Source: Chloroflexota bacterium (GTDB taxonomy: Bacteria; Chloroflexota; UBA11872; UBA12225; JAJDUF01). Taken from it: a stretch of DNA of 64,000 nt. Both the position numbers and the translations under genes were made by a program. Where the stretch lies: the NCBI GenBank assembly GCA_034422515.1, contig DAOUJP010000025.1, positions 221,692 through 285,691 on the forward strand, given 5' to 3'. Below the pieces are notes generated by a model. That model made no database searches. It was not told where the DNA came from and saw only the letters and a list, made by a program, of their open reading frames with translations. Shown piece by piece: positions 2,071 to 63,072 of the stretch (the first letter of the stretch is position 1; every line of letters begins with the position of its first letter).

Positions 2071-2082
2071 GGGCCGGGCACA

Positions 2083-2162
2083 GGTTCCCTCCCCCGTCGG
2101 GACGGGGGAGGGCTAGGGAGGGGGCCAGCTCCTCCCTCATCAAGTTGTCAACCTTCATCAGG
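2083..2162 (+). repeat. module D dispersed element (~80 nt), copy 1 of 3
   Basis: ggttccctcccccgtcgggacgggggagggctagggagggggccagctcctccctcatcaagttgtcaaccttcatca. Near-identical backbone at 15813-15893 and 62926-63008. Confidence 0.8.
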
Positions 2163-3423: not shown

Positions 3424-4158
3424 ATGCCACCGGTCTTTACAGCGAACGAGGTCGAGTTCAGCTACGGCCCACTCAACGTCCTCAATGGGCTTACCCTCGC
3501 GGTGAACGAGTCGGAGATTTTTGGCGTCCTCGGCGCCAACGGCGCCGGCAAGACCACCCTGATGCGGCTGCTCATCGGCCTCCAGCAGCCGTCCGCCGGA
3601 GCGGTCCGCGTGTTCGGCGAACCGCCATCGTCTCGCGTCACCGGGCGCATCGGCTACATGCCGCAGCTCAGTGCCCTGTACCAGGAGCTGTCCGTCCGCC
3701 AGAATGTAGACTTCTTCGCCCGGATGTACGGCCTCTCCCGGTCTGCCGAGCGGCGCGAAGCCGTTGACCAGGCTATCGAATGGGTCGCGCTGACCGAGCG
3801 CCAAAAGGACCCGCTCACCCGCCTGAGCGGCGGTATGCGCCAGCGCGTGAGCCTCGCCATCGCCCTCGTCCACCAGCCCGACCTCCTGGTCTTGGACGAA
3901 CCCACCGTGGGCCTTGACCCGGAGCTACGGGCCTCGTTCTGGGAGCACTTCCGTACCATGGCCGCCTCCGGCACCACCCTCATCATCTCCAGCCACACAA
4001 TGGACGACGCTGCCCACTGTCACCGGCTCGCCTTCATTCAGGAAGGGCGCGTCGTCGCCCTGGGGAGTCCCGATGAGTTGCGGGCGGCCACCGGGAGAAG
4101 CGACGCCACCCTAGAGGATGCGTTCCTCCATTTCGTCAGGCAGGGCGGTCCATCGTGA
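3424..4158 (+). CDS. ABC transporter ATP-binding protein
   Basis: Walker A GANGAGKTT, signature LSGGMRQR, Walker B LLVLDEPT. Start chosen at ATG 3424 (aaagg N11 ATG); TTG 3391 and ATG 3403 are alternatives. Confidence 0.9.
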   Translation: MPPVFTANEVEFSYGPLNVLNGLTLAVNESEIFGVLGANGAGKTTLMRLLIGLQQPSAGAVRVFGEPPSSRVTGRIGYMPQLSALYQELSVRQNVDFFARMYGLSRSAERREAVDQAIEWVALTERQKDPLTRLSGGMRQRVSLAIALVHQPDLLVLDEPTVGLDPELRASFWEHFRTMAASGTTLIISSHTMDDAAHCHRLAFIQEGRVVALGSPDELRAATGRSDATLEDAFLHFVRQGGPS

Positions 4159-5819: not shown

Positions 5820-5844
5820 CCCCCACACTGCACCGCCGCCATCC

Positions 5845-6178
5845 GTCATTCCCGCGCAAGCCGCAATCCAGGGCCATTCATAGCCTCCGGTCGTCGCGTG
5901 GACTCCCCTGCCCTGCCAGGGAAGGGATCGGGGGTGAGGTCCCATCCGCCGCTCCAATCCGCCTTGCGCCTGTTTTCCGGGTTTACCTACCCCTGTCAGG
6001 AAGGGCCGGGCTGACTGGAGTAGGTACGGGTTTTCCCGTAGGGGCGCAACATGTTGCGCCCGTCCCCCCGTCGGGACGGGGGGACCATAGGGGGGACAGC
6101 CCTCCTCCTGTCTATCCCATCCATCCATGTAAAATACCTACCCCTGTCAGGAGAGGGCTGGGGGTGAGGCTCACCGGC
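5845..6178 (+). repeat. dense mosaic repeat cluster: A (5845-5869), C-variant (5903-5943), C-variant+G (5987-6032), F palindrome (6042-6061), B (6062-6097), E ccatccatgtaaa (6117-6138), C-variant (6140-6176)
   Basis: Each module matches other copies in the window, e.g. ctgactggagtaggtacgggtt also at 7928 and 13308. Confidence 0.85.
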
Positions 6179-7804: not shown

Positions 7805-8014
7805 GGTAGGGGCGCGATTCATCGCGCCCTGGAATTCGTCATTCCGGCGGAAGCCGCAATCCCCCTCTCGCTTGTGGAGCGGCCCTCACCCCCGTAGGCG
7901 TGTCCCTTGTGGGCGCCCTCTCCTCCTGACTGGGGTAGGTACGGGTTAATCCGTAGTGGGCTACAGCATGTTGCGCCCGTCCCCCTGCGAAGCGGGGGTA
8001 CCATAGGTCCCCCC
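7805..8014 (+). repeat. mosaic repeat cluster: F' palindrome gggcgcgattcatcgcgccc (7808-7829), A (7838-7862), G (7928-7949), degenerate F+B (7957-8014)
   Basis: Same modules as elsewhere. The F'-A pair recurs inverted at 55421-55468. Confidence 0.8.
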
Positions 8015-13740: not shown

Positions 13741-15663
13741 CTAGAGATACCAGTCGGGATCGGTCAGCGCCTCTGCGACTACGCCGCCCTCCGCGTCGCG
13801 CGGACGCGGCAAGCCGGTCACGTAGGCCAGGGTCGGCGCGACATCCACTTGGCGCACCTGCTGTTGCAAGTGAACACCCTCTTTGATTCCGGCGCCGGCC
13901 AGCACAAAGCATGTATGCTGTGATCCCCAGCCGAGGCGTGCGCTCGGTAGCTGCGGTCCGTGCGCGCCGTTGAACTCCGGCAGCGTCGCGTACACCACGT
14001 CACCCACCAGCTCGCCCCACAGGTTGGCTACCTCGGCGTCCTCGCGCCGCAACGCGAACACGAACGGGCAGTAGCCGGCGCCCGGCTCCCGATAGCCGTT
14101 CAGCGCGTGAATGATGTCCCGCCGGACCTGCTCATAGTCCGCCGGGTCCACGATACCGGTCGGCTCGCGGCCCTTGAGATTGACATAAATGTTCACGTTG
14201 CCGACCGGCGCCGCCGTGGTGCGCGTCCAGTCAATGGCCCGGCCGCCGTTACCATCGTCCGTGTAGACCAGGAAGCCGGTCTGCTCCAGCACGTCGGCGA
14301 CCTCGACTAGCGGATAGCTGGTTGGCGTGCCGCCGTGATCCGCCACAATGCAGATGACGGTGTGGTCGTCGAGCAGCGCCTCGCAGAGCCGCCCGATCCA
14401 GCGGTCACAGGCCGCGTAAGAGCGCGCCATTCCCTGGAAGCACCGCTCGACGCGCTCCGGCGGCTGGCCGCTGACCGCATCGGCATCGGCCATGAAGAAG
14501 TGGTTGGCATAGTCGGGCACGTGCGTCTGGGTGAAGAGGCCGCCCCAATCGGGTCGTGTCGAGCAGAGGTGGATCGCCGTGTCGGCGAGCTTGCCCAGAT
14601 GGTGCTCGACTAGCTCGAAGTAGGTATCGTCGTCAATCACCCCCAGCGCGTCACGACCGGGGTTCTGCAGAAACGGCCCCACGTTCTCCAGCAGTTCTCC
14701 TGCCACGGCGTTTGGGTAGGTGAAGCCGTCCAGCGGCCAGATTTGCGGCACGAACAGTTCGAATCGCTCGCCGTCCGGCGTCAGCTCGATACATTTCATC
14801 CGCACGTGGCCGGCGATGTCGCTATCGCCGATGCGGAAGCTGTCGCGGACATATCCCGTCCATGCGCCGGCCTGGAGGTCCTGCTCGAACAGGCAGTCGG
14901 CGCCATCGCGGCTACGGGTAATCCGCACCCGGTCATAGCCCTCCCCGCCGGAAGCGTAGATCAACGCATAGTAGCTCTTCGGAACGACGGCGCCCGAGCG
15001 GCCCATGGAATGGTGGCTGCGGTGTTGTGGCCGGATGACCAGCTCCGCTTCCAGCGGCTCACGCGCGCTCGCCGGCAGGTTACTCCATCCGGCACCGGAT
15101 ACGCCGCGCAGGGTGATCGGCTCGAAACGTTGGCTCTCCCGCAAGGCGCTCGGATCAACGGCGGCGCTGTCCGTCGAGGCCGCCGTTTGCTCTTCCTCCC
15201 GGCCCACCGCGAACAGGTGATAGCCGGCGATCTGCGCGTGATTGCTGATGCCCGGCCCCGTGCCCTCGACCTGAACACCGCGACTGATCGTCGGCGGCCA
15301 CGACATCTCGTACTTCACCAGCACCGGCACGCGCCCGCCGCGCTCGACGGTATTCCAGAGGTACTCCGCCTTGCATAGCCGGGTGTTGATGCCCCACACG
15401 GTCTGATCGAGCGGCTGCCCCAACGCGCGGATATTGAAGTCCATCACCTGATGCGTACCCGGCCACGCGCCGGTGGCCAACGTAGTCCAGCCCGGCGGCG
15501 TCAGCGTGGGTAGCACCCCCCACATCTCTCGATGCACACCCCGCTCGATGAGCCGGCCAACGTTGGGCATGTAGCCGGCCTCAACCATGTGCAGCATACT
15601 CTCCATGCCCACACCGTCGAGACCCACCAAGATGAACCGTTTCGCTGGACTCTCGCCAGCCAT
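13741..15663 (-). CDS. alkaline phosphatase superfamily protein (type I phosphodiesterase/nucleotide pyrophosphatase-like)
   Basis: Metal-binding cores ILVGLDGVG, TLTPPGWTTLATG, CIVADHGG and HG. Confidence 0.85.
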   Translation of the reverse strand: MAGESPAKRFILVGLDGVGMESMLHMVEAGYMPNVGRLIERGVHREMWGVLPTLTPPGWTTLATGAWPGTHQVMDFNIRALGQPLDQTVWGINTRLCKAEYLWNTVERGGRVPVLVKYEMSWPPTISRGVQVEGTGPGISNHAQIAGYHLFAVGREEEQTAASTDSAAVDPSALRESQRFEPITLRGVSGAGWSNLPASAREPLEAELVIRPQHRSHHSMGRSGAVVPKSYYALIYASGGEGYDRVRITRSRDGADCLFEQDLQAGAWTGYVRDSFRIGDSDIAGHVRMKCIELTPDGERFELFVPQIWPLDGFTYPNAVAGELLENVGPFLQNPGRDALGVIDDDTYFELVEHHLGKLADTAIHLCSTRPDWGGLFTQTHVPDYANHFFMADADAVSGQPPERVERCFQGMARSYAACDRWIGRLCEALLDDHTVICIVADHGGTPTSYPLVEVADVLEQTGFLVYTDDGNGGRAIDWTRTTAAPVGNVNIYVNLKGREPTGIVDPADYEQVRRDIIHALNGYREPGAGYCPFVFALRREDAEVANLWGELVGDVVYATLPEFNGAHGPQLPSARLGWGSQHTCFVLAGAGIKEGVHLQQQVRQVDVAPTLAYVTGLPRPRDAEGGVVAEALTDPDWYL

Positions 15664-15717
15664 TACAAAGCCTCCCCAAACCGCGTGGATTGCACCGCCC
15701 CTCTGCCGGGGCGGCTG

Positions 15718-15919
15718 TAGCCCCTAACTATAGACGACGCGCACGTGGTCCGGGCCGCAGCAGTGTGGAGTTGCCGGCGGAATCGGCGGGGGAATGCAAA
15801 GGAGGAGAGTACGGTTCCCTCCCCTGGAGCTTGCTCCGGGGGAGGGCTAGGGTGGGGGCCAAAACACTACCCAGTTAAGTCCGCAACCTTCATTAGCCCC
15901 TAACTATAGACGACGCGCA
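15718..15919 (+). mobile_element. MITE-like insertion: 150-bp segment (15744-15893, includes module D 15813-15893) flanked by perfect 26-bp direct repeat tagcccctaactatagacgacgcgca (15718-15743 and 15894-15919)
   Basis: Exact 26/26 direct repeat seen in sequence. The insert carries a D element also present at 2083 and 62926 without this flank. Confidence 0.6.
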
Positions 15920-16015
15920 GCAGCAATCCGCTTCTTCAGCGCCTCGCCGTCTACGAGGCCCTGCCATCCGCCGGCGGCCGCGAGGGAAGCGCTGAGGGCG
16001 GCAGCGTCCTGCTCC

Positions 16016-16789
16016 TTAGCCATCTTCTACCCTCTTCCTCTCACCATCGGCGAGCACACGCGCACGGGCATACTGCGTGCAGGCGTAGTAGGCCTCAATG
16101 GACTCGCCGGCATCGCCCCAGAAACCAGACAGGACATCGTGTTCGACCTGACCGCGTTCGAGGAAGGCCTTATTGACATCGGTAATCTCCAGCTCGCCGC
16201 GCCCGGAGGGGGTGAGGGTCCGCACAATGTCGAACACCTCGGCCGGATAGAAGTAGACGCCGGTGACGGCATAGGCAGAGCGCGGGTGAGCGGGCTTTTC
16301 CTCGATGTCCACCAGCCGCTCTGGCTGATCGCCATCGAAAACGGCCACGCCGAGATGCCGCAGATGCGCCGGGTCCGCGATCTCTTTCAGTAGCAGCCGC
16401 GCTCCTTGCGGCTGGCGCTCGAAGCGCCGGACGATGGGAGCTAGATCGTCCTCTACGATGTTGTCGCCGAGCATCACGACCACCTTGTCGCCGGCCGCGA
16501 AGTGCTCGGCCAACCCAAGCGCCTGGGCAATTCCACCCGGTCGCTCCTGATAGGCGTACTGCAAGCTCCGCAGACCTACCGGCCCGCCGCTGCCCAGCAG
16601 GCGCAGGAACTCGCCCGCGTGATTGCCGCCGGTGACGACCATGATCTCCTCCAGCCCGGCGCGCACGAGCGCCTCTAGTGCAAAGTAGATCATGGGCCGG
16701 TCGTAGATCGGCAGCAGGTGCTTGTTGGTGATGTTGGTCAGCGGGGCCAGGCGCGACCCGGTCCCTCCGGCGAGAAGAATCCCTTTCAT
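16016..16789 (-). CDS. sugar-1-phosphate nucleotidyltransferase (RmlA/GlmU-N-like; glucose-1-phosphate thymidylyl/uridylyltransferase family)
   Basis: MKGILLAGGTGSRLAPLT...NKHLLPIY...VVMLGDN signature of NTP_transferase. Confidence 0.85.
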   Translation of the reverse strand: MKGILLAGGTGSRLAPLTNITNKHLLPIYDRPMIYFALEALVRAGLEEIMVVTGGNHAGEFLRLLGSGGPVGLRSLQYAYQERPGGIAQALGLAEHFAAGDKVVVMLGDNIVEDDLAPIVRRFERQPQGARLLLKEIADPAHLRHLGVAVFDGDQPERLVDIEEKPAHPRSAYAVTGVYFYPAEVFDIVRTLTPSGRGELEITDVNKAFLERGQVEHDVLSGFWGDAGESIEAYYACTQYARARVLADGERKRVEDG

Positions 16790-16952
16790 AATGCACGCTT
16801 ACCCGTGAGGGCGGCCTCCTTTGCTCTATCGGCTTGCCGACGTACCCCGTCCGCGCCACCTTGGCCCGTCATTGTAGCGGCAATACCCGGACGAGTGACC
16901 GGACCAAGCTGATAGCACCACCGTCGCACAGAGCACACCTATCCCCAACCAC

Positions 16953-17042
16953 CTCTCCCCTGGGAGAGGGCCGGGGTGAGGGCAGCCGGGGACGGCACCG
17001 ACTCCCCTTCCCTGCAGGGAAGGGGCCGGGGGTTAGGTCCTC
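16953..17042 (+). repeat. module C-variant (16953-16984) and module C (17003-17042)
   Basis: cctctcccctgggagagggccggggtgagggc ... ctccccttccctgcagggaaggggccgggggttaggtcc. Confidence 0.8.
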
Positions 17043-18546: not shown

Positions 18547-18651
18547 TCCCGCACTGGCTCCCGGAGCAACGCCACACGGAGCGCCTAGTCGGCCGCACCG
18601 CTCATGCTGACCATCTTGCATCATGAGCGAGTGTGAGCGGCCCCTACTTTC

Positions 18652-18713
18652 GTCATTCCGGCGGAAGCCGGAATCCATGTCCCCCGGCAGAGCGGGGGGA
18701 CCATAGGGGGGCG
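18652..18713 (+). repeat. composite repeat A (18652-18676, GNRA loop GGAA) + B (18679-18713)
   Basis: gtcattccggcggaagccggaatccatgtcccccggcagagcggggggaccataggggggcg. Confidence 0.85.
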
Positions 18714-62815: not shown

Positions 62816-62925
62816 TTGCACATACCCACCCCCAACCCCTCCCTGATGAAAGTTACCAACTTAATCGGGTAGTGAGGCATCCCCTTCCCCCAGCCCTATC
62901 CCCGCTCCGCAGGGGGCCGGGAGCG

Positions 62926-63072
62926 GGTTCCCTCCCCTGGGGCTTGCTCCGGGGGATGGTGAGGGGGGCCAGACCACTACCTAATCAAGTTCGCAACCTT
63001 CATAAGGGAGGAGGCTCCAGGTTGTCGCGCGGACTCCCCTTCCCTGGAGGGAAGGGGCCGGGGGTTAGGTCC
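62926..63072 (+). repeat. module D copy 3 (62926-63008) followed by module C (63026-63072)
   Basis: gggttccctcccctggggcttgctccgggggatggtgaggggggccagaccactacctaatcaagttcgcaaccttcat ... gcgcggactccccttccctggagggaaggggccgggggttaggtcc. Confidence 0.8.

Follow-up and report, generated by a model that had tools for sequence, protein, structure and literature searches.

A perfect 26-bp direct repeat around an intergenic repeat element in an uncultured Chloroflexota bacterium appears to be a recombination scar in a decaying toxin–antitoxin spacer

Does a perfect long direct repeat on either side of an intergenic repeat element record the insertion of that element? The question arose from 64,000 nucleotides of a Chloroflexota bacterium (assembly GCA_034422515.1, contig DAOUJP010000025.1, positions 221,692 to 285,691), hereafter the window, in which a copy of a short repeat module, D, lies in a 150-nt segment bounded by two identical 26-mers. 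The original prediction read the 26-mers as resembling a target-site duplication (TSD) and as the most direct evidence in the window that one of its repeat families is or recently was mobile. Comparison with related loci led us to a different reading: the locus appears to be a scar left by recombination, and not a TSD of D, in a hypervariable spacer with a decaying toxin–antitoxin (TA) cassette. The explanation we favour, with a probability of roughly 55%, is that one illegitimate joint and one homologous crossover united two alleles of the spacer, one with the toxin deleted and the other without the TA cassette but with D. On balance, the 26-mers would then represent two allelic copies of a single motif, placed in tandem by recombination and not by the insertion of an element.

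Layout and authenticity of the repeat

The 26-mer TAGCCCCTAACTATAGACGACGCGCA was present in two exact copies, at 15718–15743 and 15894–15919, around 150 nt (15744–15893) whose right part is the D copy, just as first described. No third match was found in the window, even when three mismatches were allowed, and a two-match result was obtained in none of 100 dinucleotide-preserving shuffles. Read along the minus strand, the order of features is a nucleotidyltransferase (NTP-transferase) gene, a small open reading frame (ORF), the 26-mer/D region, a leader and a phosphodiesterase (PDE) gene. The right-hand 26-mer (15894–15919, minus strand) is fused to the small ORF, to which it contributes a terminal ...ARRL and the stop codon, and touches the ATGAAGG end of D. 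The left-hand 26-mer (15718–15743, minus strand) contains TATAGT and lies 55 nt before the PDE start codon, in the native position of a motif upstream of that gene.

Two separately assembled Logan contigs from run SRR13587046 (L001 and L002) each contained one copy of the 26-mer with its own flanks; they broke within the hairpin of D and overlapped by just 12 nt. The two-copy layout was also found in other assemblies (L004, L082 and L097, and partially in L083 and L098). It is therefore not an assembly artefact. Since short-read unitigs break in the D hairpin, collections of this kind should contain too few contiguous loci of D-bearing alleles.

In the L004 group (L004, L082 and L097, with L083 and L098 partial) the shared repeat was only 20 nt long, because D lacks its first 28 nt there. 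The 26-nt identity of the window consists of 23 nt of true homology (GCGCGT...GGGGC) and of variable flanking bases that match in this genome. The leading T of the right-hand copy derives from a GCT codon of an antitoxin gene, and that of the left-hand copy is a native variant shared with L095. The trailing TA of the two 26-mers may match by parental haplotype or by chance.

A conserved motif upstream of the phosphodiesterase gene

Nine species of uncultured Chloroflexota, represented by metagenome-assembled genomes (MAGs) with 89–97% protein identity, were recovered when species-representative genomes were searched with the PDE protein, and homologues of the antitoxin added eight further contigs. 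The PDE-proximal region was readable in 15 alleles in total. All 15 carried one copy of the motif GCGCGTCGTCTATAGTTAGGGGC at a fixed distance upstream of the PDE start codon. Its core, GTCTATAGTTAGGGG (15721–15735 and 15897–15911 in the window), was invariant throughout (L003–L009, L039, L082 and L093–L097), while the neighbouring spacer varied freely. The motif was present in alleles devoid of the TA cassette and of D, and in alleles that never had the small ORF; L009 kept it although the leader 3' of the motif differs there. The left-hand 26-mer, previously interpreted as a duplicated gene end, is thus the PDE-upstream motif in its native context.

The motif was found nowhere else in the window. 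A metagenome scan for TCGTCTATAGTTAGGGG returned nine matches, all in unrelated sequence, and no extra alleles, so the motif is not a widespread repeat. Judged by its conservation, it is likely a gene-specific promoter, operator or other regulatory site of the PDE gene. A role of TATAGT as a −10 element or as part of an operator is plausible; a sigma-70 scan detected no consensus promoter at either copy, so that a promoter role is something we infer.

Downstream of the motif, the leader (15664–15717, minus strand) contains a stem-loop, GCCGCCCC-GGCAGA-GGGGCGG, followed by the Shine–Dalgarno-like GGGGAGG before the start codon. This 54-nt leader was conserved in 14 of the 15 alleles, and from GCCGCCCC onward the window was identical to its closest relative, L096. 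The PDE gene itself (13741–15663, minus strand) encodes a protein of 640 amino acids of the type I phosphodiesterase/nucleotide pyrophosphatase family (PF01663, E = 1e-27).

The small ORF as the remnant of an antitoxin gene

The right-hand 26-mer does supply the last codons and the stop (...AARRL) of a 39-amino-acid ORF on the minus strand, as had been noted. The ORF spans 15904–16023, one base off the coordinates first given, and its ATG overlaps the NTP-transferase stop codon at 16016–16018, an overlap that was likewise noted. No called protein is on record for it. Aligned with residues 55–92 of the 92-residue antitoxin encoded at the same position in L004, it was identical at 36 of 38 positions; the start codon is kept and residues 2–54 are gone, a deletion also present in L003. 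By this alignment, the ORF is an in-frame remnant of a putative Phd/YefM-like antitoxin whose new C-terminus is read from the motif. The full-length antitoxin matched the Pfam family PhdYeFM (PF02604) weakly, with E-values of 0.0016–0.026 and 14.7–18.6 bits against a cutoff of 29.8, and had no match in NCBIfam. In L005, L093, L094 and L095 the full-length antitoxin gene is followed and overlapped by a PIN/VapC toxin gene (PF01850, E = 1.6e-11; VapC model of NCBIfam, E = 2e-21, below its cutoff). The small ORF is hence homologous to an antitoxin located directly upstream of a PIN/VapC toxin, which is what a TA remnant should show.

The toxin gene was lost at no fewer than three independent junctions: a CTCTCG microhomology (L007), GTGACGTT/TCGCC (L003) and GCGCGT (L096, the window and the L004 group). 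The antitoxin, too, has been shortened within its reading frame by two independent internal deletions. This tally of toxin losses and antitoxin deletions refers to L003, L007, L096 and L004 and to proteins P0004, P0005, P0008, P0011, P0013 and P0017. Within one small clade, both sub-clades contained alleles with and without the TA cassette. The repeated losses and deletions, taken with this distribution, indicate trans-species polymorphism or frequent allele exchange.

The junction seen in the window could be reconstructed to the base. The sequence TGCGCGT belongs to the antitoxin gene itself (GCTGCGCGT followed by GGCTCT in L003, L007 and L093). In the toxin-bearing alleles L005, L093, L094 and L095, the antitoxin reads GCTGCGCGT and continues with GGCTCTCG, and about 470 nt downstream the context of the motif reads CGGCGCGT and continues with CGTCTATAG. 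A deletion between the two GCGCGT hexamers yields GCNGCGCGTCGTCTATAGTTAGGGGC, exactly the junction in the window, so that antitoxin and motif meet within a 6-nt microhomology. The motif became a gene end solely through the deletion of the toxin gene.

In several respects the locus resembles known decaying type II TA loci of the Phd/YefM–VapC kind: the toxin is intact in some relatives and independently deleted in others, the antitoxin or its C-terminal part persists, and the antitoxin and toxin genes overlap in intact alleles. It differs from them in the weak Pfam match of the antitoxin and in the make-up of the remnant, which combines a start codon, the in-frame C-terminal 38 residues and a tail taken from the upstream motif of the neighbouring gene.

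Native spacer between the repeats

At its ATGAAGG end, D (15813–15893, minus strand, approximately 81 nt) is in direct contact with the right-hand 26-mer. The left-hand 26-mer begins 69 nt past the other end, GGGAACC. These 69 nt (15744–15812, minus strand) are native intergenic sequence of TA-less alleles. L039 contains D, the 69 nt, a single motif and the PDE gene, lacks the antitoxin, and has an NTP-transferase 3' end of the TA-less type. Local alignment of the 69 nt gave scores of 52 with L039 and 57 with L004, as against a shuffle maximum of about 20. With the spacer of L006, which contains neither D nor the TA cassette, 42 columns were aligned, and 4 of 500 shuffles were as good (p about 0.008). 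The similarity to L008 was weak (15 of 17 positions matched in CGCCGATTACGTCGGCA; 38 of 500 shuffles as good). Next to the other copies of D the 69 nt were absent. In L039 and L006 the 69 nt run straight into the motif, and the succession of spacer and motif is therefore the native, contiguous arrangement. On this comparison, the 150-nt insert is D plus 69 nt of native spacer, and not a discrete mobile unit. We dropped the idea that the TA cassette divides a native spacer whose left half would now be found upstream of the antitoxin, since the alignment of that region to the 69 nt was no better than that of shuffled sequences.

The closest relative and mosaic flanks

The closest relative found was L096, with 96.1% identity in the NTP-transferase, 97.4% at the 5' end of the PDE gene and an identical leader; the other alleles reached at most 94.5%. 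In L096 a full antitoxin (GCCGCGCGT-CGTCTATAGTTAGGGGC; ...AAARRL and stop) ends at the one motif of the locus, directly followed by the leader and the PDE gene, and neither D nor the 69 nt is present at the locus. The empty site that had been suggested as a check therefore exists, with a single 26-mer at the antitoxin end. Relative to L096, the window has a 176-nt insertion with the 26-mer at both sides. It is unlikely that L096 arose secondarily by deletion between the repeats: it retains two ancestral features that the allele of the window lacks, the full antitoxin and an upstream region of about 120 nt, and after the motif it has the TA-type haplotype CGCCG. Such a deletion would also leave the origin of the repeat unexplained.

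After the left-hand 26-mer the window reads CTACA, as do the TA-less L008 and L009, where L096 has CGCCG; identity to L096 then resumes. Quartet analysis grouped the window with L003 on the side of the glutamate dehydrogenase (GDH) gene (37–48 informative sites versus 8–10) and with L039 over PDE positions 401–1000 (17–21 versus 6–12). The flank phylogenies thus disagree across the spacer, and the mosaic that these quartets suggest fits the recombination model. The deletion of the upstream region and the GCGCGT deletion of the toxin were seen in all four combinations (L005/L093; L095; L096; L004/window), which points to recombination within a few hundred bases. D and the 69 nt differ by about 7% between the window and L004, and the arrangement is consequently old.

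Proposed joining of two spacer alleles

The layout of the window equals the sum of the L096 type (antitoxin–motif–PDE) and the L039 type (D–69 nt–motif–PDE), overlapping at the motif. The alleles show that the NTP-transferase gene and the motif were originally separated by a Phd/YefM-like antitoxin–VapC pair. The toxin was deleted between the GCGCGT at the 3' end of the antitoxin gene and the GCGCGT at the start of the motif, and this fused the ORF to the motif with the ending ...AARRL and a stop; L096 still has this single-copy state. On our model, DNA from a TA-less allele with D, the 69 nt and the motif, in the arrangement of L039, would then have been joined to the toxin-deleted allele. 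In this event an illegitimate joint would have formed exactly at the ATGAAGG end of D (...GGGGC(TA)/ATGAAGG), along with a homologous crossover just 3' of the motif. The resident motif would have stayed beside the imported one, giving antitoxin–motif–D–69 nt–motif–PDE. Later deletions, as the alleles show, removed residues 2–54 of the antitoxin in the lineage of the window and, in that of L004, the 28 nt at the start of D.

An event of this type is known as homology-facilitated illegitimate recombination (HFIR). HFIR with joints at 3–10 bp of microhomology has been documented in transformable bacteria (PMC6382021), in studies of which we cite what that article summarises (de Vries & Wackernagel 2002; Prudhomme et al. 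2002; Meier & Wackernagel 2003). A recipient type (L096), a donor type (L039), a single joint at GGGGC(TA)/ATGAAGG and incongruent quartets on the two flanks, as expected of an HFIR product, were all found at the locus. In HFIR, homology on one side anchors the incoming DNA, a microhomology of 3–10 bp serves as the joint on the other, and the resident sequence lies beside the imported one in the product, so that the shared segment becomes a direct repeat. Unlike in those studies, the event is read here from comparative sequence of uncultured Chloroflexota MAGs; the imported DNA would be an allelic version of the same spacer and not a foreign gene, and the joint falls at the terminus of a repeat element.

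Several observations weigh against the joining of two alleles. The exact donor, which should lack the TA cassette, carry D and the CTACA haplotype and have flanks like those of the window, was not found, and the relatives were read as loci of about 10 kb and not as whole genomes. The joint coincides exactly with the terminus of D, which would be a coincidence if the process were purely illegitimate and hints that the end of D may be involved. Both 26-mers share the CTA end and the T start, which calls for matching variants in the parents or for later homogenisation. D-less alleles gave no significant match to the first 20 of the 69 nt (GTACTCTCCTCCTTTGCATT). The two-copy allele is shared by two lineages, the window and the L004 group, with about 9–10% divergence between them, and each has a nearer relative that lacks it, so that the history needs further allele exchange or sorting. 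By analogy with the documented cases, the model would also need competence or another route of DNA uptake in these uncultured Chloroflexota.

Alternative explanations

A replication error within one genome would make do with a single event. An ancestor with the antitoxin and toxin genes upstream of D, the 69 nt and the motif is supposed to have undergone a template switch that deleted the toxin and left a 19-nt filler templated by the motif, entering at GCGCGT and leaving at CT(A) before ATGAAGG. Microhomology is indeed seen on either side of the right-hand copy (GCGCGT; CTA or CTN-ATGAAGG), and the locus has undergone no fewer than three further, independent deletions at microhomologies (CTCTCG in L007, the 28 nt of D and antitoxin residues 2–54). 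Yet in L005, L093, L094 and L095 the toxin gene is followed by about 25 nt and then the motif, with neither D nor the 69 nt; L096 is a plain product of the GCGCGT deletion without the context of a filler; and the ancestor that the switch requires was not observed among the 15 alleles. We regard this course of events as unlikely. It is more doubtful still that D itself drove the rearrangement by one-ended or single-strand transposition, in which an enzyme acting at the ATGAAGG end would copy D, the 69 nt and the motif and paste this 176-nt unit exactly on the 3' side of the resident motif; on that view, the repeat is transduced flanking DNA and not a target duplication. The right-hand copy abuts precisely the terminus common to all five D copies, a different sequence abuts that same terminus in L039, and the 176-nt unit is both preceded by and ends in ...GGGGCTA. 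Against such read-through, no conserved target such as IS200/IS605-type elements need is seen in the 5' flanks of D, none of the other D copies carries extra transduced DNA or a motif, and no transposase or REP-associated tyrosine transposase (RAYT) was identified, with no screen of the window proteins directed at Y1/HUH enzymes. Donor and target would moreover be the same locus in two genomes, so that DNA exchange is needed in any case. We give similarly little credence to the broader notion that the ATGAAGG end of D might be an active site of recombination or transposition, with D carrying along adjacent spacer and a promoter-like motif; if it were true, D would be an element, similar to repetitive extragenic palindromic (REP) sequences, that transduces regulatory DNA between alleles or loci. 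The same holds for a 26-bp staggered cut made by an unknown enzyme.

The least probable account, to which we attach very little weight, is a true TSD, produced when an integrase or transposase with 26-bp staggered cuts placed a discrete 150-bp element (D and the 69 nt) in the 26-mer. Formally, the window does differ from L096 as it would after an insertion that duplicated its target, L096 being the empty site with a single copy, and the 26-mers are 100% identical, their variable end positions included. As in the insertion of a transposon or of a miniature inverted-repeat transposable element (MITE), a direct repeat flanks the insert, a relative has the empty site, and the insert holds a multicopy intergenic repeat. 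However, the repeat is not found at both ends of D, the left-hand copy being 69 nt away; duplications of the same length are lacking at the other copies (five D copies examined); and the insert is not foreign to the locus, since the 69 nt match both L039 and the D-less spacer of L006, where they run into the motif. Together, the contact with one end of D only, the native 69 nt and the lack of repeats at other D copies mean that the locus is not evidence for a 26-bp TSD. In L039, D and the 69 nt occur without a second motif copy; the shared repeat of the L004 group measures only 20 nt; and terminal inverted repeats are missing, as are tRNA or integrase features. TSDs are typically 2–14 bp long, and 26 bp exceeds, to our knowledge, those of known bacterial transposases. 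An integrase or attachment-site mechanism had been offered to account for this length. It found no support: the window contains no tRNA or tmRNA that could provide an att context, no integrase lies beside the site (a search that did not extend to the whole window), and the 150-nt insert carries no gene.

None of the processes at work is new; they comprise microhomology deletion, illegitimate and homologous recombination, and REP-like repeats. The locus is ordinary biology and leaves the current understanding of mobile elements unchanged. It does caution against reading every long and perfect direct repeat on the two sides of a repeat element as a mark of transposition, even when a sister genome has a real empty site. 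As a compact case from nature, it also illustrates how the spacer between two genes changes in uncultured Chloroflexota, through TA decay by microhomology deletions, the gain of a REP-like module and the shuffling of alleles between related species, and it flags a strongly conserved 15-nt motif upstream of the PDE gene as a likely regulatory site.

The D element and neighbouring repeats

The D copy at the locus consists of a head, ATGAAGGTTGCGGACTTAACTGGGTAG, and a G/C-rich hairpin, CCCTCCCC-GGAGC..GCTCC-GGGGAGGG, which ends in GGGGAGGGAACC in minus-strand reading. The window contains four copies of D, as against zero expected, all of them intergenic. One copy (approximately 2081–2162, minus strand) lies between convergent genes. 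The copy at 62925–63007 (minus strand) forms an inverted pair, again between convergent genes, with a copy at 62842–62914 (plus strand) that had not been listed before; the pair is oriented head-out and has its central G/C-rich segment in common (62842–63007). As had been stated for the copies then known, no flanking direct repeat was found at any of these three. The proposal to look for flanking duplications at further copies thus gave a negative result: the three other copies in the window and the one in L039 had no adjacent direct repeats, only chance-level 8–12-mers. The 5' flanks of the copies were CTG, CTT, CTG, ATT and CTA. No terminal inverted repeats were found at the termini of D.

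Three lineages (the window, the L004 group and L039) have D at the locus under study and nine other alleles lack it; D therefore is or was mobile or exchangeable. To that extent the suggested mobility of a repeat family holds, though not on the strength of the 26-bp repeat. Folding of D, which had also been recommended, gave a fold dominated by a strong hairpin, with z = −0.96 relative to shuffles and thus not exceptional. Rfam searches returned nothing credible for D or the motif (the window at gathering thresholds; the local region at E up to 10), and a scan of viral contigs for the D head gave no matches.

D resembles REP sequences, bacterial interspersed mosaic elements and MITEs in being short (approximately 81 nt), multicopy (four in 64 kb) and intergenic, mostly between convergent genes, in its G/C-rich hairpin, in clustering with other modules and in being present or absent among relatives. 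It differs from them in that no link to a RAYT or transposase was seen (the window proteins were not screened for Y1/HUH), in having neither a TSD nor terminal inverted repeats, and in its family-specific 27-nt head (ATGAARGTT...RGGTAG) with no Rfam match. We also considered an integron attC site, given the likeness of ACTTAAC (in D) to RYYYAAC and of GTTAGGG (in the motif) to GTTRRRY, and rejected it: AAC is present in only two of five D copies, D has no complementary R', and the hairpin does not span the element. The D head, ATGAARGTT..ACTTRAY.RGGTAG, is located at 2132–2158 (minus), 15867–15893 (minus), 62846–62872 (plus) and 62977–63003 (minus). It would encode a mini-ORF, MKV(A/T/D)(D/N)L..., with a stop after seven codons in three of the four copies.

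Upstream of the antitoxin remnant, the neighbouring gene (16016–16789, minus strand) encodes an RmlA-like sugar-phosphate nucleotidyltransferase (PF00483, E = 1e-46; the rmlA-like model was below its cutoff). Its stop codon, TAG in relatives, reads GAG in the window and in L082 (window 16016–16045; L082 2980–3004; L097). The NTP-transferase is thereby eight to nine codons longer and overlaps the start of the antitoxin or antitoxin-remnant ORF.

The repeat modules of the window appear to cluster. A second family, similar to GCGGCTTCCGCCGCAATGACGG, was found at 588–609, 5843–5864, 7836–7857 and 18650–18671, always on the minus strand, and a member of it directly abuts the D terminus in L039 (approximately 3690–3770). 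Two tandem G/C-rich palindromic modules, CCACCTCTCCCCTGGGAGAGGGCCGGGG and CCCCTTCCCTGCAGGGAAGGGGCCGGGG, are located at 16949–17031, between the NTP-transferase gene and the divergent GDH gene.

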